DNA of 32,000 nt. It comes from Geotalea uraniireducens Rf4. GTDB taxonomy: Bacteria; Desulfobacterota; Desulfuromonadia; Geobacterales; Geobacteraceae. This document shows positions 1 through 32,000 of this stretch, one piece after another; the first letter of the stretch is position 1, and each line of letters starts with the position of its first letter. A program made the position numbers and the translations under genes. The stretch is taken from contig NC_009483.1 of NCBI RefSeq assembly GCF_000016745.1, positions 4,740,001 to 4,772,000 on the forward strand. The letters run 5' to 3'. The notes beneath the pieces are model-generated. The model had not been told where the DNA came from and searched no databases. It saw only the letters and a list, made by a program, of their open reading frames with translations.

Positions 1-167
1 AGGTGGAGCGCCTCTGGGCCGACAACGCCAAGGCGAAAGAGCTCCTTGGATGGGAACCGCTTTACGCAGGGAAGGAGGGGTTGCGGCGGGGGCTCGAAGA
101 AACCATGAGGTGGTTCAAAAACCCGGAAAACCTGAAAGCCTACAAGGCGGGGATATACAATATATGA
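1..167 (+). CDS. 3' end of an NAD-dependent nucleotide-sugar dehydratase/epimerase (extended SDR; LegB/PseB-type position), truncated by the window edge
   Basis: Frame 3 reads ...VERLWADNAKAKELLGWEPLYAGKEGLRRGLEETMRWFKNPENLKAYKAGIYNI*. The D-x-x-KAK-x-LGW-x-P ... T-x-x-W tail is typical of sugar 4,6-dehydratase/epimerase C-termini. TGA 165-167 overlaps ATG 164-166 of the next gene. It is absent from the ORF track because it is partial. Confidence 0.6.
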   Translation, partial: VERLWADNAKAKELLGWEPLYAGKEGLRRGLEETMRWFKNPENLKAYKAGIYNI

Positions 168-1342
168 CCGGCTTCGACGCAGAAGCGATACTCCGGGCGC
201 TTAGAAGCGCTCTCCCCGCAGATAAAGGGCGCATAGGCCTCCATGAGCCATGCTTCGCCGGAAACGAGTGGACCTATGTCAAGGATTGCCTCGACACCGG
301 ATGGGTATCATCGGTAGGGAGCTACGTCGATCGTTTCGAACGGGAGCTCGCCGAATTCACGGGGGCAAAGCGTGCGGTCGCCGTGGTCAACGGCACCGCG
401 GCCCTCCATGTCTCTCTGCTCCTTGCCGGCGTACGACCCGGCGACGAGGTGATCATCCCCTCCCTCACCTTCGTGGCAACCGCCAATGCCGTCGCATACT
501 GCGGTGCCGTCCCCCACTTCGCCGACAGCGATGAGGCAACCCTCGGCCTCGATCCGGATAAACTTGCCGAACATCTGTCGGCAATCGCCGAGATCAGGGG
601 GGGCGACTGCGTCAACCGGCGCACCGGCCGTCCCATCCGGGCGGTCGTCCCCATGCACACCTTCGGCCACCCCGTCGATCTGGACCCACTCGTGGAGCTC
701 TGCAACCGCTGGAACCTTGTCCTCGTCGAGGACGCTGCCGAGTCGCTCGGCTCCCTCTACAAAGGCCGCCACACTGGAACGTTCAGCCGGCTGGCTGCCT
801 TGAGCTTCAACGGCAACAAGGTGTTGACCACCGGCGGCGGCGGCGCCATCCTCACCAATGACGACGGGCTGGGGAAAATGGCCAAACATCTGACCACCAC
901 CGCGAAGGTCCCCCACCGCTGGGAATTTTTCCACGACGCAACCGGCTACAACTACCGCCTCCCGAACATCAACGCCGCTCTCGGCTGCGCCCAGCTGGAG
1001 CAGCTCCCCCGTTTCCTGAAACAAAAAAGGGACCTTGCCGCCCGCTACCGGGAAGCCTTCCGGGAAGTACAGGGGGTACGTTTCATTTGCGAGCCGTCTT
1101 TTGCCGCCAGTAACTACTGGCTCAACGCGCTCCTCCTTGACCCTCCCTTTGTGAGCGCGCGCGACGACATCCTGGAAATGACCGACAAAAACGGCATCAT
1201 GACCCGCCCCGCATGGACCCCCATGCACCGCCTCCCCATGTACCGCAACTGTCCCCACATGGATCTCTCCGGCGCGGAAGACCTCGGGCTGCGTCTGATC
1301 AACATCCCGAGCAGCGCGGCTCTTGGGGGTGGCCATGACTAG
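164..1342 (+). CDS. legC: DegT/DnrJ/EryC1/StrS-family PLP aminotransferase, LegC-like
   Basis: Track ORF 50..1342. I prefer ATG 164 (MTGFDAEAIL...) because codons upstream of it overlap the previous gene and ATGA coupling is present. Motifs seen: HEPCFAGNEWTYVKDCLDTGWVSSVGSYVDRFE and SFNGNKVLTTGGGGAI (PLP-lysine region). The symbol is assigned from family resemblance plus pathway context. Confidence 0.8.
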   Translation: MTGFDAEAILRALRSALPADKGRIGLHEPCFAGNEWTYVKDCLDTGWVSSVGSYVDRFERELAEFTGAKRAVAVVNGTAALHVSLLLAGVRPGDEVIIPSLTFVATANAVAYCGAVPHFADSDEATLGLDPDKLAEHLSAIAEIRGGDCVNRRTGRPIRAVVPMHTFGHPVDLDPLVELCNRWNLVLVEDAAESLGSLYKGRHTGTFSRLAALSFNGNKVLTTGGGGAILTNDDGLGKMAKHLTTTAKVPHRWEFFHDATGYNYRLPNINAALGCAQLEQLPRFLKQKRDLAARYREAFREVQGVRFICEPSFAASNYWLNALLLDPPFVSARDDILEMTDKNGIMTRPAWTPMHRLPMYRNCPHMDLSGAEDLGLRLINIPSSAALGGGHD

Positions 1343-2492
1343 ACGGCGCATCTGCGTGGTCACCGGCACCAGGGCGGATTACGGTCTTCTTTACCGGCTC
1401 ATGAAGGAGATCGAGGGCGACCCCGATCTGCAGTTACAGGTCGTTGCGACGGGGATGCACCTTTCCCCGGAGTTCGGCCTCACGTACCGGGACATCGAAA
1501 CGGACGGCTTCACCATCCATGAACGGGTAGAGATGCTCCTCTCCAGCGACACCCCGGTCGGTATTGCAAAATCCATCGGTCTTGGGGTCATCGGCTTTGC
1601 AGACGCCTTCGAGCGGCTCAGACCGGAGATCATCGTGCTGCTCGGCGATCGTTTCGAGATGCTGGCCGCGGCCCAGGCAGCGCTCGTGGGCCGCATTCCG
1701 GTCGCCCACATCGCGGGCGGCGACACCACCGAAGGGGCCTTCGACGAGGCGATCCGCCACAGCATCACGAAGATGTCCCATTGCCATTTCGTCACAAACG
1801 AAGCGGCACTGCACCGTGTCCGTCAGCTGGGGGAAAACCCCGATGCCGTTCACCTGGTGGGGAGCCCCGGCATCGATCAGATCAGGCGTCTTACGCTTCT
1901 GTCCCGCCATGAGCTGGAGCGCGACCTCGGCCTCGCCTTCAGGAAAAGGAACCTCCTGGTGACGTTCCATCCGGCAACCCTTGACGAGGTCTCTGCTTCA
2001 GAGCAGATGCAAGCCCTCTTTGACGCCCTTGACAGGCTCGGTCCCGAGGTGGGGATCATCCTCACCAAGCCCAACGCCGACACGGGCGGACGCAGGCTTT
2101 CCGACATGATCGACGTGTATGTTTCCGAACGGGATCAGGCAAAGGCCTTCACCTCCCTCGGCCAGCTCCGCTACCTGAGCCTCATCCCGCAGGTGGACGC
2201 GGTGGTGGGGAACTCCTCAAGCGGGCTCTACGAGGCGCCGTCATTCAAGAAGCCGACGGTCAACATCGGCGACCGCCAGAAGGGACGGCTCCAGGCATCC
2301 TCGGTCATAAATTGCGCCCCGGTTGCAGACGATATTCTGCAAGCAGTTCGGGCAGCCTTCGGGCTCGACTGCTCGACGGCCGTCAACCCTTACGGGGACG
2401 GGAACGCATCTTCGCGCATCGCGGCGATCCTCAAGGGACTTCCGGAGCCGCGCCGACTCATCAAAAAGCACTTTTTCGATCTGAACGGGTAA
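1335..2492 (+). CDS. neuC: UDP/GDP-N-acetylglucosamine-type 2-epimerase (hydrolysing), NeuC/LegG family
   Basis: Track ORF 1323..2492. ATG 1335 overlaps the upstream stop at 1340-1342. The N-terminus RRICVVTGTRADYGLLYRLMKEI, plus HIAGGDTTEGAFDE and SSSGLYEAPSFKKPTVNIGDRQKGR, are typical of hydrolysing 2-epimerases. Confidence 0.85.
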   Translation: MTRRRICVVTGTRADYGLLYRLMKEIEGDPDLQLQVVATGMHLSPEFGLTYRDIETDGFTIHERVEMLLSSDTPVGIAKSIGLGVIGFADAFERLRPEIIVLLGDRFEMLAAAQAALVGRIPVAHIAGGDTTEGAFDEAIRHSITKMSHCHFVTNEAALHRVRQLGENPDAVHLVGSPGIDQIRRLTLLSRHELERDLGLAFRKRNLLVTFHPATLDEVSASEQMQALFDALDRLGPEVGIILTKPNADTGGRRLSDMIDVYVSERDQAKAFTSLGQLRYLSLIPQVDAVVGNSSSGLYEAPSFKKPTVNIGDRQKGRLQASSVINCAPVADDILQAVRAAFGLDCSTAVNPYGDGNASSRIAAILKGLPEPRRLIKKHFFDLNG

Positions 2493-2496
2493 CCCG

Positions 2497-3588
2497 ATGG
2501 GAACACAAAGAAAACATACCTACATAATTGCCGAGGCCGGCGTGAACCACAACGGTTCGCTGAAGATGGCCAAGGAACTTGTGGAAGCCGCCGCAAACGC
2601 AGGCGCGGACGCTGTCAAATTCCAGACATTCAAGGCGGAGAAGCTCGTCAGCCGCAACGCCCCCAAGGCTGGCTACCAGACGATGACGACGGACGCCGCC
2701 GAGTCCCAGTTCGACATGATCAGGAAGCTTGAGCTCGACGAGGAGGCGCACCGCGTACTCATCGAGCATTGCCATGTAAAGGGGATACAGTTTCTCTCCA
2801 CCCCGTTCGACTTCGACAGTCTGGAGATGCTGGCGCGGACCTTCGACCTCCCCCGCCTGAAGCTCCCGTCGGGGGAGATCACCAACGCCCCGCTGCTTTT
2901 GCGGGCGGCGCGCACAGGCAAACCGGTCATCCTCTCCACCGGCATGAGCACCCTGGGCGAGGTGGAGGCAGCCCTCGGCGTCCTTGCTTTCGGCTACGCT
3001 GCCCGGAAAGATGCGGCGCCTTCGCCCGCAGCTTTCCGGGAGGCTTACGGTTCCGCCGCAGGGCAGGAAGCGTTGGAGCGGAACATGGTGCTCCTCCACT
3101 GCACCACCGAATACCCGGCCCCCTTTGACGAGGTGAACCTGCGCGCCATGGACACGCTGCAAGACGCCTTCGGACTGCCGGTCGGCTTTTCCGACCACAC
3201 CACCGGCGTTGCCGTTCCCATCGCCGCCGCGGCCCGGGGAGCAATGGTGATCGAAAAGCATTTCACACTTGGACGCGACCTGCCGGGGCCGGACCACAAG
3301 GCATCGCTGGAGCCGGGCGAGCTGACCGAGATGGTTAAGGCCATACGTCAGGTGGAGCTGGCCCTGGGCAGCCGTCTCAAGGCGCCGACCATGTCCGAGT
3401 CGAAGAACATGTCCGTCGCGCGCAAGAGCCTCGTAGCGGCGGAACCGATCCGCACGGGGGACTTTTTCACCGGGAAAAACGTGGCCGTGAAGCGTCCGGG
3501 CAACGGCATGTCCCCCTTTCTCTATTGGGACGTCCTCGGCAAGAGGGCGTCAATGAATTTTGAACGCGATGAGGTGATACTCCCATGA
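2497..3588 (+). CDS. neuB: Nonulosonic acid synthase (N-acetylneuraminate/legionaminate synthase, NeuB/LegI family) with C-terminal SAF domain
   Basis: YIIAEAGVNHNGSLKMAKELVEAAANAGADAVKFQTF is the classic NeuB N-terminus. Also present are HCTTEYPAP and GFSDHT, and a C-terminal SAF-like segment (ARKSLVAAEPIRTGDFFTGKNVAVKRPGNG). Confidence 0.9.
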   Translation: MGTQRKHTYIIAEAGVNHNGSLKMAKELVEAAANAGADAVKFQTFKAEKLVSRNAPKAGYQTMTTDAAESQFDMIRKLELDEEAHRVLIEHCHVKGIQFLSTPFDFDSLEMLARTFDLPRLKLPSGEITNAPLLLRAARTGKPVILSTGMSTLGEVEAALGVLAFGYAARKDAAPSPAAFREAYGSAAGQEALERNMVLLHCTTEYPAPFDEVNLRAMDTLQDAFGLPVGFSDHTTGVAVPIAAAARGAMVIEKHFTLGRDLPGPDHKASLEPGELTEMVKAIRQVELALGSRLKAPTMSESKNMSVARKSLVAAEPIRTGDFFTGKNVAVKRPGNGMSPFLYWDVLGKRASMNFERDEVILP

Positions 3589-4223
3589 GCCTGCCGGTCG
3601 TGATACTGGGCGCCGGCGGCCACGCACGGGTGCTTCTGGAGGCCCTGCGCTCGGCGTCCCGCCAGGTGGCGGGAATCGTCGATGCCGATCCGGCAAGGAT
3701 CGGAGAAACCGTCATGGGGGTACTGGTCATCGGCACGGACGAAAAGGTTTTTGACTTTCGGACCAACGAGATTGAGCTCGTGAACGGCATCGGTTCGGTG
3801 GCCTCGACGGCAAAAAGGGTGGAACTCTTCGCGGCGTTCAAGGCCCACGGCTACCGGTTTGCCACTGTCGTGCACCCCTCGGCGGTCATTGCTTCGGACG
3901 CGGAACTGGCGGAAGGGGCACAGATCATGGCAGGGGCCGTCATCCAGGCGGGAGCGAGCATCGGCATGAATTCCATCGTCAACACACGCGCCGCCGTCGA
4001 TCACGACTGCCGCATCGGCGCAGGCGTCCACATCGCGCCGGGAGTCACCCTTTCCGGGGACGTCCGGGTGGACGACGACGTACACATCGGCACCGGTGCA
4101 ACAGTGATCCAGGGAGTACATATTTCCGGAAAAAGCGTCGTCGGCGCAGGGTCGGTCGTCCTGCGCGACGTTCCAGGAGGGGTCACGGTCTACGGGGTCC
4201 CCGCACGTGAGGCACGAAAATGA
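3585..4223 (+). CDS. NeuD/PglD-family hexapeptide-repeat sugar N-acetyltransferase (LegH-like)
   Basis: The ATG overlaps the neuB stop (ATGA at 3585-3588). N-terminal Rossmann-like VVILGAGGHARVLLEAL is followed by left-handed beta-helix repeats (IGAGVHIAPGVTLSGDVRVDDDVHIGTGATVIQGVHI). Confidence 0.8.
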   Translation: MSLPVVILGAGGHARVLLEALRSASRQVAGIVDADPARIGETVMGVLVIGTDEKVFDFRTNEIELVNGIGSVASTAKRVELFAAFKAHGYRFATVVHPSAVIASDAELAEGAQIMAGAVIQAGASIGMNSIVNTRAAVDHDCRIGAGVHIAPGVTLSGDVRVDDDVHIGTGATVIQGVHISGKSVVGAGSVVLRDVPGGVTVYGVPAREARK

Positions 4224-5275
4224 ATAATTGGGAAAGCATCCTCGTATCGCCTGAAACGCCGATCATCGAAGCGATTCGTATCATCGACGACAGCACGCTC
4301 CAGATAGCGCTGGTGGTCGATGAAAACCACAAGCTGATAGGTACGCTCACCGATGGCGACGTCCGACGGGCCATCCTCAAGGGGCTCCAGCTCGACAACC
4401 CTGTCCGGCAGGTGATGAACACCAACCCCATTGCAGCCGACCTTAACGACAGCCGCGAGAGCATTCTCGCCATCATGCGGGCGACCAAAATCCGGCAGAT
4501 TCCCATCGTTGACGGACAGGGGATCGTCGCCGGACTGGAACTTTTCAACAACCTGATCCAGCCCTGCGAACGGGAAAACATCGTCGTCCTCATGGCCGGA
4601 GGTCTTGGCAGCCGGCTCCGCCCCCTGACCAACGACTGCCCCAAGCCGCTCCTCAAGGTCGGCAGCAAGCCGATCCTTGAAACGATCATGGAAAGCTTCG
4701 TCGAGCACGGTTTCCGTCGCTTTTACATTGCCGTCAATTACCGGGCGGAAATGATCAAGCACCATTTCCAGGACGGCTCACGGTGGGGGGTGAAAATCGA
4801 CTACCTCCACGAGGAGAAGCAGCTCGGCACCGCCGGCCCCCTGGGCCTCCTGCCGGAAACTCCGACGCAGCCGGTGCTGGTCATGAACGGAGACCTCCTG
4901 ACCAGGGTTAACTTCCAGCAGCTTCTCGACTTCCATAACGAACACCGGGTGCTGGCCACCATGTGCGTGCGGGAGTATGATCACCACATCCCCTATGGCG
5001 TCGTGCAACTCAACAAGCACCGCCTCATGAACATCGAGGAAAAACCGGTGCAGCGGTTCTTCGTCAATGCAGGCATCTACGTTCTCAGTCCGAAAGCCCT
5101 GGAACTGATTCCCCGCAACCATTACCTGGACATGCCCAACGTCTTCAGGGAGCTCATCAACAGGAAAGAGGAAACCGCCGTCTTCCCCATCCATGAATAC
5201 TGGCTCGACATCGGCCGCATGGACGACTTCGAGAGGGCCGACATCGAATATCCAAAGGTGTTCAATGGTAAATGA
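4220..5275 (+). CDS. CBS-pair + sugar-1-phosphate nucleotidyltransferase (PtmE-like GlcN-1-P guanylyltransferase candidate)
   Basis: ATGA overlap with the upstream stop. The N-terminal ~115 aa look like tandem CBS domains (LIGTLTDGDVRRAIL, IRQIPIVDGQGIVAGL). These are followed by LMAGGLGSRLRPLTNDCPKPLLKVG, the G-x-G-x-R-L NTP-transferase motif. Confidence 0.75.
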   Translation: MNNWESILVSPETPIIEAIRIIDDSTLQIALVVDENHKLIGTLTDGDVRRAILKGLQLDNPVRQVMNTNPIAADLNDSRESILAIMRATKIRQIPIVDGQGIVAGLELFNNLIQPCERENIVVLMAGGLGSRLRPLTNDCPKPLLKVGSKPILETIMESFVEHGFRRFYIAVNYRAEMIKHHFQDGSRWGVKIDYLHEEKQLGTAGPLGLLPETPTQPVLVMNGDLLTRVNFQQLLDFHNEHRVLATMCVREYDHHIPYGVVQLNKHRLMNIEEKPVQRFFVNAGIYVLSPKALELIPRNHYLDMPNVFRELINRKEETAVFPIHEYWLDIGRMDDFERADIEYPKVFNGK

Positions 5276-5954
5276 CAAAAAGATCCTTGCCGTAATTCCC
5301 GCCAGGGGGGGCTCCAAGGGGGTGCCGCGGAAAAACATCCGTCCCCTTGCGGGGAAGGCGCTCCTCGCCTGGAGTATCGAAGCGGCCAGAGGGTCGCGGT
5401 ATATCGACCGGCTCATCATCTCTTCCGATGATGCGGAGATCATCGAGGTCGCCCGGGAAGCCGGATGCGAAGCACCCTTCGTCAGGCCTGCGGAGCTCGC
5501 CCGGGACGACACTCCGGGGATCGAGCCGGTCATCCACGCCCTGAAGATGCTCCCCGGTTACGACTACGTGGTTCTCCTGCAGCCGACCTCGCCGTTTCGC
5601 ACCGCCGACGACATCGACCGCTGCATCGAGATGTGCGCCGAAAGCGGAGCTCCCTCCTGCGTTTCGGTCACGCAACCCGACAAGAACCCTTTCTGGATGT
5701 ACGCCCTTGACGAAGAAACGAGAATGACCCCCCTGCTCCCCCCCCCTGAAGGGTTTTCCCGGCGCCAGGACCTGCCGAAGGTCTATGCCTTGAACGGGGC
5801 CGTCTATGTGGCGGAAACAAACTGGCTGTTTGAAAACAGGACGTTCCTAACCGCGGATACGCTAGGCTGCATCATGAGCAGGGAACATGCCGTCGACATC
5901 GATACGGAACAGGATCTCGCCTTCTGCGAGTTCCTGGTGGGCACCAAGGCTTAA
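5265..5954 (+). CDS. neuA: Acylneuraminate cytidylyltransferase family (CMP-nonulosonate synthetase, NeuA/LegF-like)
   Basis: Track ORF 5193..5954. I prefer ATG 5265 (MVNDKKILAVIPARGGSKGVPRKN...), which overlaps the upstream gene by 11 nt. IPARGGSKG-x-PRKN is the CMP-sugar synthetase signature. Confidence 0.85.
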   Translation: MVNDKKILAVIPARGGSKGVPRKNIRPLAGKALLAWSIEAARGSRYIDRLIISSDDAEIIEVAREAGCEAPFVRPAELARDDTPGIEPVIHALKMLPGYDYVVLLQPTSPFRTADDIDRCIEMCAESGAPSCVSVTQPDKNPFWMYALDEETRMTPLLPPPEGFSRRQDLPKVYALNGAVYVAETNWLFENRTFLTADTLGCIMSREHAVDIDTEQDLAFCEFLVGTKA

Positions 5955-5979: not shown

Positions 5980-7368
5980 ATGCGCATTCTGCTTGTAGTT
6001 TACGACAACGATTCATACATCCACTGGTTTCCCCAGGGGCTGGCCTATATCGCGAGCGTGCTCAGGAACGAAGGGCACGAGGTCGCCATCTACAACCAGG
6101 ACCTGCACCACTATCCCGACGAACACCTGACCGCCTTTCTTGACGCCAACCCGTACGACATGGTGGGTTTCAGCTTCATCTCCGGCTACTACCAGTACAA
6201 GAAGGCCCTCGCCGTTTCAGCAGCGATCAACCGGGCGAAACGACGCCCCCTCTACGTCATCGGAGGGCACGGCCCCTCTCCCGAGCCGGAATTCTTCATG
6301 AAAAAGACCGGCGCGGACGTCACCGTCATCGGCGAAGGCGAAGAGACCATCGTCGAGCTTTTGCGCGCCGTCGGCAACCATGCCCCATTTGCCGGCATCA
6401 AGGGGATCGCCTACCGGGACGGGGACCGGATCGCGATCAACGAGCGCCGCCCGCTGATCGCGGATATCGACACCATCCCCTTCCCGGCCTACGACCTCTT
6501 CCCCATCGAATATTACCGGCTCCTGCGGATGCCCCACGCCGGCAACGCCGACTTCGTCATGCCGGTCCTCTCCGGCAGAGGATGCCCCTTTACCTGCAAC
6601 TTCTGCTACCGGCTGGACGAAGGGTTCCGCCCGCGGAGCAACGCGAGCATCATCGAAGAGATCAGGATGCTGAAACGCAACTACGGCATCACCTACATCG
6701 CCTTTTCCGACGAGCTCCTCATGTCGTCCGAAGCCAGGGTGACGGCGCTCTGCGAGGATTTCATCCGTGAAAACCTGGATATAAAGTGGGACTGCAACGG
6801 CCGGCTCAACTACGCCAAACCCGAGCTTTTGGCCCTGATGAAGCGTGCCGGCTGCGTATTCATCAACTACGGCATCGAGGCCTTCGACGACGTTATTCTG
6901 AAAAACATGAACAAGGCCCTCACCACAAGCCAGATCGTCCGGGGAATCGAGGCGACCCTCGCAGTGGGCATCAGTCCCGGTTTCAACATCATCTTCGGCA
7001 ATATCGGCGAGTCCAGGGAATCGCTGCGGAAAGGGGTCGACTTCCTGCTGAAGTACGACGACGGCGCTCAGATGAGGACCATCCGCCCCGTCACCCCCTA
7101 CCCCGGCGCGCCGCTCTACTACCACGCTATCGAGAAGGGGCTCGTCGGGGACTGCGAGGATTTCTACGCCAACAAGCACCTGAACTCGGACCTCCTCGCC
7201 GTCAATTTCACGGAGCTCTCCGACGAGGAATTCCACGCGGCCCTTTTCGAGGCCAACTCGGTCCTTCTCGACAACTACTTCACCAGGAAGCGGACCTCAA
7301 CCATCGAACAGGCAAGAACGCTCTACATGGAGAGGGACAGCTCGTTCAGGGGTTTCAGACAGAGTTGA
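5980..7368 (+). CDS. Cobalamin(B12)-binding-domain radical SAM enzyme (class B rSAM, possible methyltransferase)
   Basis: Track ORF 5887..7368. I prefer ATG 5980 (MRILLVVYDND...), which is preceded by tGGAGa. The N-terminal Rossmann-like B12-binding region (MVGFSFISGYY...YVIGGHGPS) is followed by SGRGCPFTCNFCY (CxxxCxxC radical SAM cluster). Confidence 0.8.
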   Translation: MRILLVVYDNDSYIHWFPQGLAYIASVLRNEGHEVAIYNQDLHHYPDEHLTAFLDANPYDMVGFSFISGYYQYKKALAVSAAINRAKRRPLYVIGGHGPSPEPEFFMKKTGADVTVIGEGEETIVELLRAVGNHAPFAGIKGIAYRDGDRIAINERRPLIADIDTIPFPAYDLFPIEYYRLLRMPHAGNADFVMPVLSGRGCPFTCNFCYRLDEGFRPRSNASIIEEIRMLKRNYGITYIAFSDELLMSSEARVTALCEDFIRENLDIKWDCNGRLNYAKPELLALMKRAGCVFINYGIEAFDDVILKNMNKALTTSQIVRGIEATLAVGISPGFNIIFGNIGESRESLRKGVDFLLKYDDGAQMRTIRPVTPYPGAPLYYHAIEKGLVGDCEDFYANKHLNSDLLAVNFTELSDEEFHAALFEANSVLLDNYFTRKRTSTIEQARTLYMERDSSFRGFRQS

Positions 7369-7389: not shown

Positions 7390-9915
7390 ATGAACCACCT
7401 TGAAGAGACTATCGAACCTTTCCTCACCAATTCCTTCGGCGACCGCTATCTTTACTCTGTCAACCGGAACGCCTTCAACGATCTTGGTTCGGAGACCCTT
7501 TACGAAAACACCTATGGGGAAAAGCTTTTCGCGGAATATAAGCTCAACATCGTCCTGGGAACAGATTCAGGGTTACTGATAAAGCACGTCCTTGAGAAAG
7601 GGATCCCGGCAGGTTCCCGCTACATTTTCGTCGAACTGGATGGCGTCGTGGCCGCATTGCGGGCGGAAGGGTGCCTTGACGACCTCCCCTCCACAATAGC
7701 AATCGTGTCGCCGGAAGAGTGGCTAAGCCGCGCTACGGAATTCAACCTTGAAAATTACCTCTACCTCAATGCGCTCCTCTTTCACGAATCGGTCGGCGCC
7801 GCCGACGCCCACCGCACGGAGTATCTGGAATGGGCCTGGAACATAAACCTCAAGCTGCAGGAACTGTTTTACCATGTATGGGTTTCGCTGGGTGATTCCG
7901 TTTTCACCTTCAGGCAGTTCGAGAATCTCGCCGAAAACCGGCTCCATTTCTCCGAATATTTCCTGGACGCCTTTGAGGGGAAAACCGCCATCATCCTTGC
8001 CGGCGGCCCGTCCCTCAAGGAGGCGCTGCCTTGGGTCAAGGCTAACCGCGACCGGCTCGTCATCATTGCGGTCTCGCGTGTCTGCCGTCAACTTATCGAG
8101 GCGGGAGTAGCCCCTCACATCATCATCTCAGTTGACCCCCATAAGGTCAGCTTCGACGTAAGTAAAGAGATGTTCCATTTCGCAGACGAGGCCGTGTTTC
8201 TGAACTTCTTCCACGTCACGCCGCTTCTGCTCGGACAGTGGCAAGGCAGGCATCTGTTCGCTGGCCCCTTCCTTCCGTGGGAGTCCGCGTTAAACAAGGA
8301 CAACCTTGCCTACACCGGCCCGACAGTAGGAAACACCTCGATTTCCATGGCGATCCACATGGGGTTTTCGACCATCATCCTGGCTGGGGTTGATCTTTGC
8401 CATTCGCGGGAAGGACATACCCACGCCGAGGGAAGCAATGAAAGCAAGATCGGCCCCAAGCTTGGGCACGTAAGCGAAAAAGTCGAGACCTACGGCGGCT
8501 GGCAGGCGGAAACCATCCAAGCCTTCCAGATTGCCATCCCGATGATGTCCCATGCGGCGGCAACCGCATCCGAAAAAGGGTGCAAGCTCTATAACTGTGC
8601 CCTCGGGGCGGCCAAGGTATCAGGGGTAGAATATCGTGCCATTGAAGAGTTTCAGCTCCCCCCCTTGGAGCAACCCATCGGCGACACCATACAGGCGCTC
8701 ATTCCGAAAGAAACTTCCAAGGCCAGGCTTTGGCACTACCGACGGATAAAAAAGGAGATCGAGACCGCCCGGCGCAAGTTTCAGGAGATCCTTAGCCTGG
8801 TGGAGGAAGCTATCGACTGCTGCGACGGTCTCTTCGGCCGCAATGGGAAGAAGGCTGATTTCCGCCACAAAATCAGGATGGACAAGATAGAGCGGAAGCT
8901 CGACAACAGCTACCGTAAGTATTCGTACATGGTCAAGGTATTTGGCATCAAGGGGCTCGTGGAGATTGCCAAGGCCCCTGAGCTCGCAGACGACTGGACC
9001 GACGAACAGATAGAGAGCACGACGCGCAATTATTACGAGACTTACGAGGTAAGCACAAAATACCTGATAGGCATCATGGACAGCATGTTGCAAAGGATCG
9101 ATTCCCGGATTGAAGAGGAAGTGCCTCATCCTGACTTTGCGCGTCTTTTCCAGCAATGGGAGAAAGACGGCCAGCCTGGCAGGGTGCTGGGCTGGAAGCG
9201 CCACCACCCCGACTGGCTGAATCTCATGACCGAAAGCGAACGGGACCAAGCAGATCAATTGGAAGTGAGCTTCGAGAAGATTCTGGCTGAAGAACAAACC
9301 TCCCAGTTGGCATCCATCCAGAAAACCCACGACATCTCATCGGTTCTTAGAAAAGCACGGCTGCTCTTCAGGCGCGGCGAAGAAGCTGAATTGGAGATTC
9401 TGGCAAAGGGGTTGGCAACTCACCAGGAGGGGGAAAAGGCGTCCGGCTACCTTGATCTTGTACAGGGGTTCATTGCGGAACTTCAGGGAAAGCTCGACGT
9501 GGCCCTGGAACATTACCATCATTTGGTTGTCGACCTGCCCCATGCAGCCACGGAGGACGCCCTAAAGCAGATCGCTACCCTTTCCATCTCCGCAAAGGAT
9601 ATCGACAATGCCGTTCTCGCTGTGGAATGTCTGGTAGGCCTGTCCCCTGCGTACCTTCCAGCCTACGCAGACCTGCTCAAAGCTATCGGCAGGTACGAAG
9701 AGTCCTTCGATGCTTACAACCGCTACTTGGCGCTGGCCCCTGATGATGTCAGCGTAATGATGAAACTAGGGATCTTCTGCAAGGAGGCGGGGCTTGGCGA
9801 GACCGCCGTGGAACTTTTCCAGAGGGTCCTGGTCAATAATCCTGACATCAGCGCGGCCAAAACCTTTCTTGCCGAATTAAACCTCGCCGGGCACTGCACC
9901 AGCATGATGAACTGA
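7390..9915 (+). CDS. maf: Motility accessory factor (Maf)/DUF115 protein with C-terminal helical + TPR region; putative flagellin nonulosonic-acid glycosyltransferase
   Basis: The core KTAIILAGGPSLKEALPWVKANRDRLVIIAVSRVCRQLIEAGVAPHIIISVDPH ... GPTVGNTSISMAIHMGFSTIILAGVDL matches the DUF115/Maf pattern. The C-terminal ~150 aa show TPR-like repeats (AYADLLKAIGRYEESFDAYNRYLALAPDD, MMKLGIFCKEAGLGETAVELFQRVLVNNPD). Confidence 0.8.
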   Translation: MNHLEETIEPFLTNSFGDRYLYSVNRNAFNDLGSETLYENTYGEKLFAEYKLNIVLGTDSGLLIKHVLEKGIPAGSRYIFVELDGVVAALRAEGCLDDLPSTIAIVSPEEWLSRATEFNLENYLYLNALLFHESVGAADAHRTEYLEWAWNINLKLQELFYHVWVSLGDSVFTFRQFENLAENRLHFSEYFLDAFEGKTAIILAGGPSLKEALPWVKANRDRLVIIAVSRVCRQLIEAGVAPHIIISVDPHKVSFDVSKEMFHFADEAVFLNFFHVTPLLLGQWQGRHLFAGPFLPWESALNKDNLAYTGPTVGNTSISMAIHMGFSTIILAGVDLCHSREGHTHAEGSNESKIGPKLGHVSEKVETYGGWQAETIQAFQIAIPMMSHAAATASEKGCKLYNCALGAAKVSGVEYRAIEEFQLPPLEQPIGDTIQALIPKETSKARLWHYRRIKKEIETARRKFQEILSLVEEAIDCCDGLFGRNGKKADFRHKIRMDKIERKLDNSYRKYSYMVKVFGIKGLVEIAKAPELADDWTDEQIESTTRNYYETYEVSTKYLIGIMDSMLQRIDSRIEEEVPHPDFARLFQQWEKDGQPGRVLGWKRHHPDWLNLMTESERDQADQLEVSFEKILAEEQTSQLASIQKTHDISSVLRKARLLFRRGEEAELEILAKGLATHQEGEKASGYLDLVQGFIAELQGKLDVALEHYHHLVVDLPHAATEDALKQIATLSISAKDIDNAVLAVECLVGLSPAYLPAYADLLKAIGRYEESFDAYNRYLALAPDDVSVMMKLGIFCKEAGLGETAVELFQRVLVNNPDISAAKTFLAELNLAGHCTSMMN

Positions 9916-10336: not shown

Positions 10337-10762
10337 CTACGCGATGTCGTTCCAGTTCTGTCGTGATCCCCGTCCGCTACTCTCATAGCTGACAATAGCC
10401 GTTTTCCCACGCGCACCGGCTGCTATTTCACTCTGAAGATGGGCTAGCCGTTCCCCGGCCAAAGCGATGGACAGCGAGTCAAGTTCCAGAATCCTATTTG
10501 TTGCGGTCTCCTTGAAAGTCCTGAATTCGTCCAGCCGGGAATCCCTGATAGTCTCCATCCCCGCGTCTTTCAAATATTTGACAAGGCAGGTGTCAATGTC
10601 GAAGAGTTCTTCAATGTTTCCTTGGCGTCGGGCTATTGCGCCCTCAAAGGCTTCTGGTCCCCAGATGTCCACATTTCGCAGGAGGTCCTCAGCCTCGGCC
10701 AGCAGGAGCTGATACTGCTCTTTCCACCTGCTGATCAAAGTCTCAATAGCTTCGCGCCCCAT
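10337..10762 (-). CDS. Hypothetical helical protein downstream of fliS (possible FliT/FlgN-like flagellar chaperone; unproven)
   Basis: Track ORF 10337..10840. I prefer ATG 10762 (MGREAIETLISRWKEQYQLLLAEAEDLL...), which lies 4 nt after the fliS stop. The longer form would overlap fliS by 74 nt. No family signature recognised. Confidence 0.45.
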   Translation of the reverse strand: MGREAIETLISRWKEQYQLLLAEAEDLLRNVDIWGPEAFEGAIARRQGNIEELFDIDTCLVKYLKDAGMETIRDSRLDEFRTFKETATNRILELDSLSIALAGERLAHLQSEIAAGARGKTAIVSYESSGRGSRQNWNDIA

Positions 10763-10766
10763 GGAA

Positions 10767-11186
10767 TTACCCTGCTGCCAGCAAATAGGTATCTGCTTGC
10801 CCTGCGGCTCTTTCTTTCCTCGCTTGCAGGATGGCATCATTCCAGCCGTCCTTCAGGATGGTAAGCACATTTATGGCGTTCTCCAGAGAGGCAGCCGAAT
10901 TGTTCAGATTGGCCTCGGTGAACTCGCTGATCAAATACATGTATAACCGCTCAAGGTTGATGGCGATCTCGCCTCCCACGTCGTGGTTCAGCGTGTTCAT
11001 AAGTTCGGTGACGATCGCCAGTGCCTTGCCGATGTATTTCCCTTTTCCAGCGATGTCATTATTTCTCATCCGATCGGCGGCTATCCTGGTAAAATTGATG
11101 GCCCCTTCGTACAACATGATGAGAATTTTTTCGGGACTCGCCGAACCTACTTGCATGGTCTGATACTGGGTGTAGGGGTTAGCCAT
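10767..11186 (-). CDS. fliS: Flagellar export chaperone FliS
   Basis: MANPYTQYQTMQVGSASPEKILIMLYEGAINFTRIAADRM... is a typical FliS four-helix chaperone. AGGAGGG lies upstream of the ATG. Confidence 0.9.
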   Translation of the reverse strand: MANPYTQYQTMQVGSASPEKILIMLYEGAINFTRIAADRMRNNDIAGKGKYIGKALAIVTELMNTLNHDVGGEIAINLERLYMYLISEFTEANLNNSAASLENAINVLTILKDGWNDAILQARKERAAGQADTYLLAAG

Positions 11187-11272: not shown

Positions 11273-12694
11273 TTAATTGTTGTTTAATGACGCGTTGAGG
11301 CTGTTGATGAGCATGGTCCCCTGGCTTTGCAAGTTACTGACCATCAACTCCATGGCACTGAACTGACGCTGCAGATTGCTCTGCATCTGTAAAACCCGGT
11401 CCTCCATACGGCTGATCTGCTTGTCGATGTCGGCGTTGGTTTTGGCCAACCCCTTCTTTCTCACCTCAAGGCTCCCGTTGCCCGTTACGCCGTCGGCAAT
11501 GTACGGGTGCACCATGGTGTCCAGCACCAGGTTAAACTGCTGTGCAATGCCATACTGGTTGGCCGGCAAAGTGGCCATTGAGGATCCGTTATGGGTGAAA
11601 TAATCCACGACATCGGTGTAATTGTCATCCAATGCCTTGGAAAGCTTCGTTGCATCAACCGACAGGAGTCCCGTCTTCGAATCGGAGTTGATCCCGAGAG
11701 CCGCAAGGCTCGTTATGGAGCCGGTTGCCCCGGATACCGTGGCAGTCAACAACGACCGGAGCTGCCCCTGGATGGTCCGCAGCGTGGAGTCGCCGGAGAG
11801 CACCCCGGCGCTCTTAGTGTCCGTGTTATAAGCCGATTCCGCATTCACCAGCGTTATCGCCCTGTTATAACCCGCGACAAAATCGTTGATCTTTTTGGTG
11901 ACAGCTTCGGTGTCGTTTGCCACCGTCACGGTAGTAGTCGCCCCTTCTTTCAGCAGCTTCAGAGTGACACCCTGTATGGCGTCGGTCACCGTGTTGGAAG
12001 TCTTGGTCATAGTGACGCCGTCCACAACAAGCTGCGTGTCGGTGCCGGCCTGATAGGTGGGGTCTCCCACGCCGAGGAGCGTGGGGGTCAGCGCACCGGT
12101 TCCCCCGACGGGAGGAGTCGCCAAGCCGCTGAAGTCAAGTGTATAGTTCTTGGTATCCTTGCCGGTAACGACCAGCCGGTAATTCGTGCCGTCGTTTATG
12201 ATCGAAGCAGAGACGTTGGCACCTGATGAATTGATGGCCGAAGCAATTCCTTGCAGTGAGTTTTGTCCCTCAGTGATGTTGACTGTGGTGGTTGTGGTGC
12301 CGTCGGAAACTGTGAAATTCCCGGTGCTGAAGGTAAGCGAGGTGTCACTTGCCACTCCCGTGGAGACCTGCCGCTGGCTCTTGGCGAGGGAAACCACCTG
12401 AACGGTGTGGGTGCCGGGGGTGGCAGAACTGGTCGCGGTGGCCGTGGTAACGGAGCTGTCGGCCACGGTCGACTGCAACACACTGAAGTTCGTTACCGTG
12501 TTGAGCCCCTTGACAATGGACTGCAGGCTCGTGAGGGCATCTCCGATGCTCTGGTAGCGACTGATCTTGCTGCTGTTCTTCTGTTGCTGAGCCTGCAGGA
12601 GCTGCTGTGGAATGCGCTCCAGGCTCATCAGCTGGGTGATAATCTTCGCGGTGTCAAGCCCTGTCGCCAGGCCACCAAATGATATAGATGACAT
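11273..12694 (-). CDS. fliD: Flagellar filament cap protein FliD (HAP2)
   Basis: N-terminus SISFGGLATGLDTAKIITQLMSLERIPQQLL and C-terminus DRVLQMQSNLQRQFSAMELMVSNLQSQG are classic FliD. Confidence 0.9.
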   Translation of the reverse strand: MSSISFGGLATGLDTAKIITQLMSLERIPQQLLQAQQQKNSSKISRYQSIGDALTSLQSIVKGLNTVTNFSVLQSTVADSSVTTATATSSATPGTHTVQVVSLAKSQRQVSTGVASDTSLTFSTGNFTVSDGTTTTTVNITEGQNSLQGIASAINSSGANVSASIINDGTNYRLVVTGKDTKNYTLDFSGLATPPVGGTGALTPTLLGVGDPTYQAGTDTQLVVDGVTMTKTSNTVTDAIQGVTLKLLKEGATTTVTVANDTEAVTKKINDFVAGYNRAITLVNAESAYNTDTKSAGVLSGDSTLRTIQGQLRSLLTATVSGATGSITSLAALGINSDSKTGLLSVDATKLSKALDDNYTDVVDYFTHNGSSMATLPANQYGIAQQFNLVLDTMVHPYIADGVTGNGSLEVRKKGLAKTNADIDKQISRMEDRVLQMQSNLQRQFSAMELMVSNLQSQGTMLINSLNASLNNN

Positions 12695-12904: not shown

Positions 12905-13735
12905 TTATCTCAACAGCGAGAGTGCGGCCTGCGGTGCCTGGTTGGCTTGGGCCAGGATGGCGGTGCCTGCCTGGACCAGGATGTTCGCCCTAGTCATGTT
13001 TGCGGTCTCAGCGGCGACGTCTGCATCTGCGATACGGGACTGTGCGGCCGAGGTGTTCTCCGATGCAACCTGGAGGTTGTTGATGGTCGACTGGAGACGG
13101 TTCTGGATGGCGCCGAGGCTTGCGCGCTGTTTCGATACCGAGTTGATCGCCTTGTCGATGACGGCAAGCTCGGCCTGTGCTTTAACACCACCGCTGGCGC
13201 CCCCGATGGAGGTAAGAGCCAGACCGCCTGCGCCCGCGCTCATGATCGCAAGCTTGATCCCAATCCTGTCATAAGCCTTGCTGCCGGTACCGACCTGGAT
13301 GGCGACAGATTTGGCGGACTGCAGAAGCTTGGTGCCGTTGAAGTCCGTCGCGTTGGCGATACGGGTGATCTCCGACTTCAGCTGGAGGTACTCACCGTTG
13401 ACGTACGAACGCTGGGTAGCGGTGAGGGTGTTGGTAGCCGCCTGAGTGGTGAGCTCACGCATACGGCCAAGGACGTTGCTGACCTCGTTGAGGGCGCCCT
13501 CAGCGACCTGCACCAGCGACACGCCGTCGTTGGCGTTGCGGACTGCCTGGTTCATCGAGCGGATCTGAGCTTTCATCCCCTCGGAGATGGCCAGGCCGGC
13601 TGCGTCGTCAGCGGCGCTGTTGATACGAAGGCCTGAAGACAGTCTCTGCAGGGACTTGTTGAGGGAGACCTGGGTGATGCTCAGGTTACGCTGTGCGTTA
13701 AGGGATGCGATGTTGGTGTTTACTGTAAGTGCCAT
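12905..13735 (-). CDS. fliC: Flagellin (short, 276 aa; D0/D1 only)
   Basis: MALTVNTNIASLNAQRNLSITQVSLNKSLQRLSSGLRINSAADDAAGLAISEGM ... ILAQANQAPQAALSLLR, i.e. canonical flagellin N- and C-termini. Confidence 0.95.
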   Translation of the reverse strand: MALTVNTNIASLNAQRNLSITQVSLNKSLQRLSSGLRINSAADDAAGLAISEGMKAQIRSMNQAVRNANDGVSLVQVAEGALNEVSNVLGRMRELTTQAATNTLTATQRSYVNGEYLQLKSEITRIANATDFNGTKLLQSAKSVAIQVGTGSKAYDRIGIKLAIMSAGAGGLALTSIGGASGGVKAQAELAVIDKAINSVSKQRASLGAIQNRLQSTINNLQVASENTSAAQSRIADADVAAETANMTRANILVQAGTAILAQANQAPQAALSLLR

Positions 13736-14016: not shown

Positions 14017-14517
14017 TCATCCGGCCGGCGGGACGCTTTTCTCCGGCTGCCTTTCCAGGCGCTGCAGGCCGGACTGTTTTTTCTCAGAGGTTTCGAAAAA
14101 CGGGTGACGGGTCGTGTACTTTTCCCCTTCGATAACGATCTGCCTGGCAATGAGCCGCTCCGGGTTGAGGACGATCGGACCCCGGAGGTTCACCGTGATG
14201 TCTCCGGGCTCAGGGGCCATGGTGACGACCAGGAGAAAGATCGCCTCCGATCGCTCGCTGAGTTCCAGCGCCCTGCACTCTTCCGCAGTGAGGGCAAACG
14301 TGTAGCCGGGAGCGCAGTTCTTGGCGTCGGCAACGACAAATGCCAGGTCAGGGTTGTCCACGGCCTGTAGCCAGCAAAACGGCCCGAGGTTCTCCGGCGT
14401 GAGGAGAATGAAACGTTTTTCGACAAAGCCGAGCATACCCTCGGGCATGTGAATGACCTTGCCTTCTTCAATATCCAGTTCACCGAAACGTGTGGTGGTC
14501 ACTTTCACGACGCTCAC
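14017..14517 (-). CDS. fliW: Flagellar assembly factor FliW (CsrA antagonist)
   Basis: TTRFGELDIEEGKVIHMPEGMLGFVEKRFILLTPENLGPFCWLQAVDNPDLAFVVADA is the typical FliW fold signature. The GTG start overlaps the csrA stop (GTGA). Confidence 0.9.
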   Translation of the reverse strand: MSVVKVTTTRFGELDIEEGKVIHMPEGMLGFVEKRFILLTPENLGPFCWLQAVDNPDLAFVVADAKNCAPGYTFALTAEECRALELSERSEAIFLLVVTMAPEPGDITVNLRGPIVLNPERLIARQIVIEGEKYTTRHPFFETSEKKQSGLQRLERQPEKSVPPAG

Positions 14518-14753
14518 TCCTTATCGCCACTGCCGAGCAAACTCACGGCATTTTCAAGGTCGGTCAGATTCCAGTCGGCGGCATGCCTGTTTTCCTCCTG
14601 CACCTGCAGATAGATCTCTTCCCGGTAGATGCGCATGTCCTGGGGTGCCTCTATGCCGAGGCGCACCTGGTTGCCCTTCACCTCCACCACCATGATCCGT
14701 ATCTGATCGCCGATGGTAACGGCTTCCCCGATTTTTCTGGTCAGAACCAGCAT
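14514..14753 (-). CDS. csrA: Carbon storage regulator CsrA (flagellar, FliW-partnered type)
   Basis: MLVLTRKIGEAVTIGDQIRIMVVEVKGNQVRLGIEAPQDMRIYREEIY is canonical CsrA, with an extended C-terminal tail. AAGGAGGG RBS. Confidence 0.95.
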   Translation of the reverse strand: MLVLTRKIGEAVTIGDQIRIMVVEVKGNQVRLGIEAPQDMRIYREEIYLQVQEENRHAADWNLTDLENAVSLLGSGDKE

Positions 14754-22807: not shown

Positions 22808-23563
22808 TCAAGGCTTATGGAGCTTCATCCTGCCGCGCAGGCGGAGAAGCGCCTGACTGTGCAACTGTGAAATCCGGGATTCGGTCAGGCTCAATACGGA
22901 GCCGATCTCCTTCAGATTCAACTCTTCATAGTAATAGAGAGTTATGACGATGCGCTCCTTTTCCGGCAGACCGTCAATCGCCTCCGCCAGATTTTCAACC
23001 GTTTGCCGCGCTATGAGCTGATTCTGGGGGCTCTCGACACCCTTGTCCTCCAGTACGTCCAGAAGACCCAACGGGCTGCCGTCTTCATCCATCCAGGCAT
23101 CATCGAGGCTCACAAAGGAGAGAAAATGGATCTCCTCGAGAAGGTGGAAATATCCCTCCAGCTCCAGCCCCATGGCGGCAGCGACCTCTTCGCTCGTGGG
23201 ATTTCTGCCGAGGCGCTGCTCCAGGCATGAAAATTCCCGTTCGAGCCTTTTGAATTTGTCCCGGAGGGAGCGGGTAAGCCAGTCCTGTGAACGGAGCTCA
23301 TCCATTATGGTCCCCCTGATCCGCTGCTCGGCAAACGTCTTGAACATAACCCCCCGCGAAGGATCAAAGCGCTCCGCCGCAGAGATCAGCCCGATGACGG
23401 CAGCGCTCCGCAGGTCGTCCCGGTCCAGATGGGGAGGAAGTGCCGACGCTATCCTGTCCACAAGGAATTTAACCAGGGGAAGATGGGAAACAACCAGTTC
23501 ATCCCTGTCGGGAATCACGGCGCGCTGGGCCTCTTGTTCATAAGCCTTAAGAAGACAATTCAT
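22808..23563 (-). CDS. fliA: Flagellar sigma factor FliA (sigma28)
   Basis: Sigma70-family regions 2-4 are present: VVSHLPLVKFLVDRI, FKTFAEQRIRGTIMDELR, LNLKEIGSVLSLTESRISQLHSQALLRLR. The ATG overlaps the flhG stop (ATGA). Confidence 0.9.
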   Translation of the reverse strand: MNCLLKAYEQEAQRAVIPDRDELVVSHLPLVKFLVDRIASALPPHLDRDDLRSAAVIGLISAAERFDPSRGVMFKTFAEQRIRGTIMDELRSQDWLTRSLRDKFKRLEREFSCLEQRLGRNPTSEEVAAAMGLELEGYFHLLEEIHFLSFVSLDDAWMDEDGSPLGLLDVLEDKGVESPQNQLIARQTVENLAEAIDGLPEKERIVITLYYYEELNLKEIGSVLSLTESRISQLHSQALLRLRGRMKLHKP

Positions 23564-29632: not shown

Positions 29633-29771
29633 CATCCTTTTTTCCCTTCATTGATCAGGCAGCAATCACCACAATCACACAATCGCTTTAATGAAGAGTG
29701 TTTCCGGTGGCCATCTCGGTCAAATTCTGCTATGAATGGCCACATCGTCAACCTATAAACCCGTGGAAACA

Positions 29772-31109: not shown

Positions 31110-31300
31110 TGGTGCCCCTGTCTCCGTTTCCCGAATTTGACGGAAACGATGCAAAAGTGCTGATTGGGATGGATGGGGAGTGAGGGGGAGTGATGGATGC
31201 ATGTTCTGCCGAAATGGAAAACGGTGATATCCATTCACGGCTGTTTTGGCACCGTACTTCATTTACAAATCTGTTGTCGCGTAAAATAGAGGTCTGATAG

Positions 31301-31861: not shown

Positions 31862-32000
31862 GATAGGCCACCATCACTCAGCCTGGAGGTTAGTAATCGC
31901 TATGAATCCTGAAGATCTTTTTGGTGCTGCTCTTGGAATTGCCATCCCGTGGAAGGTTACCTCTGTTGACTTCAACAAGAAGTCAAGTCGTTTGGACATA
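31816..32000 (+). mobile_element. Left end of an ISL3-family insertion sequence (extends beyond the window)
   Basis: A transposase start follows at 31902. GGCTCCTCGACGAATTGAG at about 31816 resembles ISL3-type terminal repeats (GGCTCTT...). The exact boundary is uncertain. Confidence 0.45.
31902..32000 (+). CDS. ISL3-family transposase, N-terminal 33 codons (partial)
   Basis: MNPEDLFGAALGIAIPWKVTSVDFNKKSSRLDI fits the ISL3 transposase N-terminal pattern (LLGL/I-x-x-PW-x-V-x-x-V-x-F/L ...). GGAGG lies 12 nt upstream. Confidence 0.6.
   Translation, partial: MNPEDLFGAALGIAIPWKVTSVDFNKKSSRLDI

Follow-up and report, generated by a model that had tools for sequence, protein, structure and literature searches.

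The 32,000-nucleotide (nt) stretch of Geotalea uraniireducens Rf4 DNA analysed here (NC_009483.1, positions 4,740,001 to 4,772,000; below, the window) contains, at 5980..7368 on the plus strand, a gene for a radical S-adenosylmethionine (SAM) enzyme with a B12-binding domain, assigned through Pfam, alignment, AlphaFold2 and Foldseek. Gene context across many lineages indicates that this gene, called the rSAM gene below, is a genuine conserved accessory of the legionaminic-acid-type pathway and no chance neighbour. Legionaminic (Leg) and pseudaminic (Pse) acids are bacterial counterparts of sialic acid; as decorations of flagella, S-layers, capsules and lipopolysaccharide, they influence motility, recognition by phages and interactions with the immune system. 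The reading we favour, with slightly less than even confidence, is that the product is a dedicated tailoring enzyme of the Leg pathway performing a cobalamin-dependent C-methylation of Leg or of its cytidine monophosphate (CMP)-activated form, CMP-Leg; cobalamin use, methyl transfer, substrate identity and the modified carbon are all inferred.

The rSAM gene recurs in nonulosonate clusters

A scan of one genome per species returned 289 relatives of the window protein, the best 80 of which (63-94% identity) were kept. We read the gene content of their loci in two ways, by tblastn with the window proteins and by an independent de novo clustering of all open reading frames (ORFs), and restricted context statistics to the 55 orthologue loci flanked by 10 kb or more. 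By tblastn, a LegF-like protein had a match in 59 of the 80 loci, NeuB in 54, PtmE in 51, NeuC in 50, LegC in 48 and NeuD in 35, whereas flagellin had a match in 13, FliD and FliS in 5 each and Maf in 4. The de novo clustering agreed and added a LegB-like dehydratase in 42 loci. Core Leg-type families were present in most well-flanked loci (at least one in 52/55, at least three in 43/55, at least five in 32/55), while a flagellar or Maf gene was present in only 12/55 and absent from the other 43. A sequence-only reading of the window had seen in the enzyme a candidate step of flagellin-glycan biosynthesis and had suggested scoring its homologues for linkage to neuB and maf; the link to the sugar pathway stands on these counts, and the specificity for flagellin falls on the same counts.

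Fifty-seven of 60 LegF-like genes lay on the strand of the rSAM gene and 21 directly adjoined it, the CMP-synthetase gene being its commonest immediate neighbour. Its position within the operons varies: after legF, in the gap between legC and legH or between legG and legI, or after acetamidino genes. A single nonulosonate cluster takes up well under 1% of a genome by our own estimate, and the association is not due to chance.

The 80 best relatives come from Geobacterales and many other Desulfobacterota, from Nitrospirota (Thermodesulfovibrionia), Omnitrophota, Planctomycetota (including Brocadiaceae) and Campylobacterales, and from Bacillota (Heliobacterium chlorum, Ca. Frackibacter), Chloroflexota, Leptospirales and Parcubacteria; archaeal carriers are Methanolobus and Promethearchaeota. 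The nearest genomes among them are Geobacter (94% identity) and Geomonas (82%), and three metagenomic contigs, L081 and L082 among them, code for a protein identical to that of the window. Most orthologues lie in general surface-glycan clusters with flippases and glycosyltransferases, for example in Omnitrophota, Planctomycetota, Nitrospirota, Methanolobus and Promethearchaeota. Adjacency to maf is seen in the window and in two orthologue loci (L001, L002).

More distant proteins keep similar company. A 60%-identical protein from a Caulobacter sp. metagenome-assembled genome (MAG) is encoded in the order neuB-methyltransferase-rSAM. A 48%-identical relative belongs to a cluster of WbqC, PIG-L, CTP_transf_3, GFO and DegT genes and stands directly 5' of an MptE-like gene, and relatives of 43% and 41% identity lie in clusters with CTP_transf_3, NeuB, DegT and Epimerase_2. 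Three of the 55 loci (L054, L059, L061) hold none of seven core nonulosonate families within 10 kb. All three are orphan copies; the one in L059 adjoins a transposase and that in L061 sits among housekeeping genes, and these two were set aside as uninformative.

Gene model, domains and fold

Translation of 5980-7368 gives 462 amino acids (aa) with no internal stop and a TGA end. The mechanical ORF list offers a longer frame from an ATG at 5887, which we rejected. The start at 5980 is preferred because the 120 closest homologues among thousands are about 462 aa long (nearly all exactly 462 aa, at least 71% identical, from many phyla, with 98-100% query coverage), because the consensus of 51 orthologues opens with MRILL at the window protein's own first position, and because a GGAG stands about 7 nt 5' of the ATG. 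The upstream CTP_transf_3 cytidylyltransferase gene, legF, stops with TAA at 5952-5954, leaving a gap of 25 nt; the next gene, encoding an MptE-like (Maf) domain with TPR repeats, starts at 7390 after 21 nt. All three genes are on the plus strand, and a scan of that strand found no promoter- or terminator-like site between them, which is weak evidence. The 462-aa frame, its spacing and the two domains described by the sequence-only reading, an N-terminal cobalamin-binding-type Rossmann region and a CPFTCNFCY radical SAM cluster, thus all hold.

The first of these domains corresponds to Pfam PF02310 (B12-binding; residues 16-127, 70.5 bits, cut-off 32.1) and the second to PF04055 (Radical_SAM; residues 198-355, 74.8 bits, cut-off 29.5). 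Conservation was read from an alignment of the 51 orthologues (mean column identity 72%). The CPFTCNFCY motif occupies residues 202-210, and its CX3CX2C cysteines, C202, C206 and C209, are invariant, as is C272; C258 and C292 are nearly so. In the GYYQY loop (69-73), G69, Y70, Q72 and Y73 are invariant and Y71 is kept in at least 90% of the orthologues. The glycines and the proline of a GGHGP motif (95-99) and the whole of GEGE (118-121) are also invariant.

The AlphaFold2 model is confident (pLDDT 92.4, pTM 0.90) and shows a cobalamin-type Rossmann domain (1-150), a radical SAM barrel (about 190-360) and a helical C-terminal domain (360-462). The CX3CX2C motif, the PF04055 hit and the match of the modelled barrel place the protein in the radical SAM superfamily, and PF02310 together with matches to TokK, TsrM and MgmA gives it the N-terminal Rossmann-type cobalamin-binding domain of class B enzymes. 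Foldseek against the PDB ranked AprD4 first (6fd2, E 2e-20, TM 0.75/0.76), followed by TsrM, MgmA (9ccb), OxsB, CysS and TokK, and AprD4 also led a PDB sequence search (E 3e-21, residues 155-412). The N-terminal 159 aa alone matched only the cobalamin domains of TokK (E 0.006), TsrM and MgmA, and the AprD4 N-domain was not among the matches. In that weak TokK alignment (E 0.006), Y71, in the loop after strand 61-64, aligns to Trp76, which in TokK occupies the cobalt's lower axial face (PMC13331322). The likeness of the N-domain favours real, if putative, cobalamin binding.

No NCBIfam model reached its cut-off for the protein. The partial scores were led by BchE (TIGR02026; 145.8 bits, cut-off 481.35), the ladderane-lipid radical SAM enzyme (133.8, cut-off 360), ApyD (119, cut-off 750) and HpnJ (118.5, cut-off 578), and then by PhpK (TIGR04479; 104.9, cut-off 600), BzaD (101, cut-off 450), the C-methyltransferase of ribosomally synthesised and post-translationally modified peptides (TIGR03975; 94.3, cut-off 281.85), AprD4 (NF033070; 82.1, cut-off 500, aligned over residues 155-407 only), HpnR (TIGR04367; 78.6, cut-off 650), the methyl-coenzyme M reductase glutamine C-methylase of the MgmA family (TIGR04014; 76.5, cut-off 360) and KedN5 (NF033712; 56.7, cut-off 700). 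We place the family in a clade of its own among the radical SAM enzymes with a B12 domain. Judged by curated cut-offs and context, the homologues that carry the source names 'anaerobic magnesium-protoporphyrin IX monomethyl ester cyclase' (BchE) and 'YgiQ' are over-annotated.

Three sets of known enzymes offer comparisons. GenK, GenD1 and Fom3, and structurally TokK, CysS, MgmA and TsrM, share with the window protein the three-domain plan of an N-terminal Rossmann cobalamin domain followed by the CX3CX2C barrel; identity to the solved methylases is only 16-19%, and at 462 aa the protein is shorter than TokK, CysS and OxsB. AprD4, from apramycin biosynthesis, is of similar length, acts on an aminosugar and has the cysteines at 258, 272 and 292 in common with it; in contrast, only the core and C-terminal part align to NF033070, and the N-domains have no detectable sequence similarity. 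AprD4 works with a reductase, AprD3, and needs a vicinal diol, neither of which is evident for the window enzyme. The BchE, HpnJ and ladderane group gives the highest curated partial scores, over nearly the full length, and HpnJ, too, acts on an aminosugar moiety; however, neither the window nor the orthologue loci hold bacteriochlorophyll, hopanoid or ladderane genes.

The legionaminic-type operon of the window

By its gene families, the unit in the window reads as legB-legC-legG-legI-legH-ptmE-legF-rSAM-maf, a complete Leg-type pathway with one extra gene. Only the 3' end of the legB-type NDP-sugar 4,6-dehydratase gene is included (1..167, plus strand), the rest lying upstream of the window; its coordinates were derived by offset from L082. 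That contig encodes the identical rSAM protein in the same gene order and shows a 336-aa Epimerase/Polysacc_synt_2/GDP_Man_Dehyd protein directly before legC, which is why legB is included in the operon order. A divergent PilZ gene lies upstream of the legB-type gene there, and the operon starts after it.

The remaining genes are all on the plus strand. The legC-type aminotransferase (164..1342; gene call from L082) scores 548.9 bits against TIGR04181 (cut-off 420) and matches Pfam DegT_DnrJ_EryC1. It is followed by a legG/neuC-type hydrolysing NDP-sugar 2-epimerase (1335..2492; TIGR03568 NeuC_NnaA, 467 bits, cut-off 235.9), a legI/neuB-type nonulosonate synthase (2542..3588; TIGR03569, 503.2 bits, cut-off 399.65; Pfam NeuB and SAF) and a legH/neuD-type N-acetyltransferase (3585..4223; TIGR03570, 230.5 bits, cut-off 160.8). 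The gene at 4220..5275 encodes a ptmE-like protein of the GDP-sugar route with CBS and sugar-1-phosphate nucleotidyltransferase domains (Pfam CBS, NTP_transferase), an architecture that we take to be that of Campylobacter PtmE. The legF-type CMP-nonulosonate synthetase (5265..5954; Pfam CTP_transf_3, 81 bits, cut-off 22.6) scores 160.5 bits against the PseF equivalog, short of its cut-off of 205.7, and is therefore not PseF proper. Beyond the rSAM gene, maf (7390..9915) encodes an MptE-like flagellin nonulosonate glycosyltransferase with a C-terminal TPR region (PF01973, 160.1 bits, cut-off 34.6; TPR_14); against the PseD model NF050051 it scores 68.6 bits and does not reach the cut-off of 670. 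Among the annotated genes of the operon there is no partner reductase or other helper gene.

We considered and rejected the idea that the radical SAM enzyme replaces a core step of the pathway: all core Leg-type families coexist with its gene in this operon, and each is found again in 35-54 of the orthologue loci. The ptm/leg locus of Campylobacter likewise has legB, legC, legH, legG, legI, ptmE and legF, then Maf and flagellar genes, and many of the related loci also hold ptmF-legF-ptmA-like triplets and acetamidino genes, as in Campylobacter. Unlike the Campylobacter locus, the window operon has an inserted B12-type radical SAM gene, which is better conserved than the core enzymes. To our knowledge, the Campylobacter legionaminic pathway has no radical SAM component, and the textbook Leg and Pse pathways use only conventional enzymes.

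Likely substrate

Across the orthologue loci, median identity to the window protein is 69% for the radical SAM enzyme, compared with 51% for LegC, 51% for NeuC, 50% for NeuB, 43% for PtmE, 42% for LegF and 35% for NeuD. In 291 of 294 paired comparisons with these six core enzymes, the radical SAM enzyme is the better conserved of the two. Such conservation would fit a cofactor-dense enzyme working on one invariant small molecule. Beside the rSAM gene, the acetamidino trio WbuX/HisH/HisF occurs in 16-17 loci, and other loci have a PIG-L deacetylase with a formyltransferase, a FemAB-like protein with a methyltransferase, or a class-III aminotransferase. Because these N-acyl tailoring sets are mutually alternative, the role of the radical SAM enzyme appears independent of the N-acyl decoration, and it probably acts on the common sugar backbone.

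The few flagellar neighbours, the alternative N-acyl sets and the high conservation together make the sugar, rather than flagellin, the likely substrate, and the enzyme belongs to the sugar pathway and is not flagellin-specific. Where the sequence-only reading had left the target open between the nonulosonate, its N-acyl group and the glycosylated flagellin, the presence of flagellar or Maf genes in just 12 of 55 loci speaks for the sugar and against the glycosylated protein. As the CMP-synthetase gene is often adjacent, free or CMP-activated Leg (Leg5Ac7Ac or CMP-Leg5Ac7Ac) is the most economical and, we infer, most likely substrate. An early GDP-sugar is possible, given the copies next to legC or legG.

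Proposed reaction and alternatives

In the reaction that we propose, the rSAM gene would be co-transcribed with legB-C-G-I-H, ptmE and legF, with maf next. A [4Fe-4S] cluster on C202/C206/C209 would reductively cleave SAM to a 5'-deoxyadenosyl radical, which would take a hydrogen from Leg5Ac7Ac or CMP-Leg5Ac7Ac at an unactivated carbon. The resulting substrate radical would then receive a methyl group from methylcobalamin held in the Rossmann domain, and the cobalamin would be re-methylated by a second SAM. Maf would move the modified CMP-sugar to flagellin in this organism, and other transferases would move it to other surface glycans in most other lineages. C-methylation of an aminosugar has a precedent in GenK, which acts at C6', and methylation of a CMP-linked substrate has one in Fom3; the lack of a helper enzyme in the window operon fits a self-contained methylation. 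Among characterised radical SAM enzymes with a cobalamin domain, methylases predominate (PMC11659888).

A more specific version, to which we give rather low probability, is that the enzyme C-methylates the C9 methyl of Leg (or C6 of the 6-deoxyhexosamine precursor), yielding a CMP-activated ten-carbon 'deculosonic' acid. Ten-carbon (C10) ulosonic acids have been detected by mass spectrometry in Magnetospirillum gryphiswaldense and, less abundantly, in Methanococcus, with evidence that includes CMP-activated forms and a 1,2-diamino-4,5-methylenedioxybenzene (DMB) derivative marker at m/z 311.10 instead of 297.09, and no biosynthetic gene is named for them (Kleikamp 2020, PMC8157484; SugarBase preprint, 10.64898/2026.04.20.719630). 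CMP-nonulosonates heavier by 14.01 Da in Ca. Kuenenia were read by the authors as O-methylated (10.64898/2026.04.20.719630). Queries with the alphaproteobacterial and Magnetospirillum sp. MAG orthologues returned MAGs of Magnetospirillum sp., Azospirillaceae, Magnetococcales and Caulobacter sp., the nearest relative of the Magnetospirillum sp. MAG protein being 74% identical.

Several points weigh against methylation. The 120 best hits of the same queries, which reach down to about 59% identity, include none labelled M. gryphiswaldense, and this leaves a link to the C10 sugar of that species unsupported. In the PDB, sequence and fold searches alike put AprD4 first, an aminosugar 1,2-diol dehydratase that does not methylate and does not depend on cobalamin. 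A B12-like domain can be cobalamin-free, as it is in AprD4, and a Pfam B12 match is no proof of cobalamin use. The best of the sub-threshold NCBIfam matches are mostly to non-methylases, and we know of no C-methylated Leg that has been structurally defined.

In the main alternative, possible but more doubtful, the enzyme would carry out non-methylating radical chemistry (epimerisation, dehydration or deoxygenation, oxidation, rearrangement) on Leg, CMP-Leg or a GDP-sugar precursor, with cobalamin in a non-methyl role as in OxsB or absent as in AprD4. AprD4 is the top match in sequence and fold over the full length, and BchE, the ladderane enzyme, ApyD and HpnJ, the leading curated partial matches, do non-methyl chemistry. 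C272, C258 and C292 align with AprD4 cysteines and could serve as hydrogen-atom donors as in radical epimerases, and epimeric legionaminic acids do occur in nature. The N-domain, however, looks like a methylase cobalamin domain and unlike its AprD4 counterpart, and the prevalence of methylases among characterised enzymes of this type (PMC11659888) runs the other way. AprD4-type diol dehydration in particular was down-weighted: besides the different N-domain, the operon has no AprD3-like partner reductase, and Leg5Ac7Ac and the post-LegB intermediates lack a vicinal diol, which makes such a dehydration unlikely.

Much less probable is a flagellum-specific post-translational step, in which the enzyme would modify flagellin or the flagellin-bound glycan after transfer. 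The rSAM gene does abut maf and flagellar genes in the window, L001 and L002; the 48%-identical relative is directly 5' of its MptE-like gene; and in a Magnetospirillum sp. MAG (L087) the gene has flaF and flbT on its two sides and a TPR protein encoded beside it, on a 12-kb contig with no nonulosonate gene. Yet 43 of the 55 well-flanked loci lack a flagellar or Maf gene while 52 have nonulosonate genes, archaea and candidate phyla have orthologues whose clusters include flippases and glycosyltransferases, and 65-75% identity over such varied acceptor contexts suits a small invariant sugar better than diverse proteins. That the gene stands there by chance, or is a general housekeeping radical SAM gene, is highly improbable and, in spite of L054, L059 and L061, looks effectively refuted by the context counts: a random 20-kb stretch would overlap a single nonulosonate cluster in about 1% of cases (our own estimate) against the 52/55 found, the gene lies inside the operons and on their strand though not at a fixed position, and the link holds in relatives down to 41% identity.

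Relation to published work and significance

A full-text literature search found no paper in which the biosynthesis of legionaminic, pseudaminic or nonulosonic acids is connected to radical SAM enzymes, and nothing relevant for radical SAM with flagellin, glycosylation or maf. The statement of the sequence-only reading that the characterised Leg and Pse pathways contain no radical SAM step therefore met no counter-example. The nearest item concerns SPASM-type radical SAM genes in the phase-variable glycosylation region of Campylobacter fetus, which belong to a different family. The superfamily and the surrounding pathway are already known, and the conserved radical step inside the pathway is the new and apparently unreported element.

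If our reading is right, a radical SAM step conserved at 63-94% identity over more than a dozen phyla and two domains would mark a widespread form of nonulosonate that has been overlooked, mainly because its carriers are anaerobes and uncultured lineages, and radical C-C or C-H chemistry would be added to the chemical range of nonulosonic acids. Should the C10 version hold, radical chemistry would lengthen the backbone of a sialic-acid-like sugar in many anaerobes and archaea. The rSAM gene is a candidate for the unexplained +CH2 and C10 ulosonic acids of mass-spectrometric surveys. It also represents a new cobalamin-type radical SAM family with an obtainable candidate substrate, CMP-Leg5Ac7Ac, and with cultured hosts (Geomonas silvestris, Heliobacterium chlorum, Desulfobacula phenolica). 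Desulfurivibrio appears in the SugarBase sample list (10.64898/2026.04.20.719630); this lead was dropped, as the genus is represented among the 80 best loci by an uncultured MAG (L022) and by no isolate genome.

Further genes in the rSAM-bearing clusters

Twelve orthologue loci (L004, L006, L014, L019, L020, L021, L027, L035, L042, L046, L060, L079) carry one to three additional B12-type radical SAM paralogues of 23-34% identity, nearly all on the strand of the orthologue, and in L079 (5103-17078) four B12-type radical SAM genes fall within 12 kb. The more distant relatives in L088 and L089 are likewise accompanied by additional genes of this type. Several distinct cobalamin-type radical SAM enzymes seem to be at work in the glycan clusters of these anaerobes.

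A 629-aa family without a Pfam match (c27) lies directly beside the rSAM gene in five loci, downstream of it in L010 (2353-4242), L006, L052 and L079 and upstream in L053, and could be either a partner protein or a nonulosonate transferase that has so far escaped recognition. Two other recurrent neighbours without a Pfam match are c18 (407 aa), after which a flippase-like gene always comes, and c38 (642 aa); none of the three gave a hint as to function. Six rSAM-bearing clusters (L004, L005, L047, L050, L056, L068) contain two CTP_transf_3 (LegF-like) genes each, a pairing that may supply two different CMP-ulosonic acids per cluster. The same duplication is found in the Ca. Kuenenia cluster (10.64898/2026.04.20.719630).

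On two marine, Tara-type contigs (L085:1-21395 and L086), a 43%-identical relative lies within a long one-directional gene array that includes two eukaryote-like GT7 (beta-4-galactosyltransferase type) genes, a 346-aa CTP_transf_3 protein, dTDP-sugar genes and two further genes of the radical SAM type, along with many ORFs that have no Pfam match; the array could be a viral or otherwise unusual glycan island. In the Magnetospirillum sp. MAG (GCA_016212565.1; L087:428-4900), where flaF and flbT, the genes on either side of the orthologue, are flagellin regulators, the preceding gene encodes a 670-aa protein with N-terminal TPR repeats and a C-terminal half without assignment, possibly FlmG-like. 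A short-chain dehydrogenase/reductase gene and a SPASM radical SAM gene are close by, and this flagellar context is independent of the Geobacter one.

Flagellar genes and surroundings in the window

Beyond maf, the minus strand carries a polar flagellar cluster in the order fliS, fliD, flagellin, fliW, csrA, flgL, flgK, flgN ... fliA, flhG, flhF, flhA. The first three genes, fliS (10767..11186; Pfam FliS), fliD (11273..12694; Pfam FliD_N, FliD_C) and the flagellin gene (12905..13735; Pfam Flagellin_N, Flagellin_C), all lie within 4 kb of maf. The flagellin, of 276 aa, is the presumed acceptor of the sugar transferred by Maf; its short central region has 8 Ser/Thr residues. Between the flagellin gene and flgL, at 14017-14753 (minus strand; calls from L081), fliW and csrA form the FliW-CsrA pair that controls flagellin translation. 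A 141-aa ORF without a Pfam match lies between maf and fliS (10337-10762, minus strand), a gene call found on three independent contigs.

At the far end of the window (29736-32000), a 457-aa protein with Schlafen AlbA_2, HATPase_c_4 and winged helix-turn-helix domains is followed by a sharp drop in G+C, which goes from about 0.54 to 0.44 within the final kilobase; a mobile or defence island may begin here, beside the flagellar cluster. In the mechanical list, the flhG-like (ParA/MinD) ORF at 23560-25113 and the flhF-like (SRP54 GTPase) ORF at 24489-25832, both on the minus strand, overlap by about 600 nt; the true flhG start is probably downstream of that of the longest ORF.

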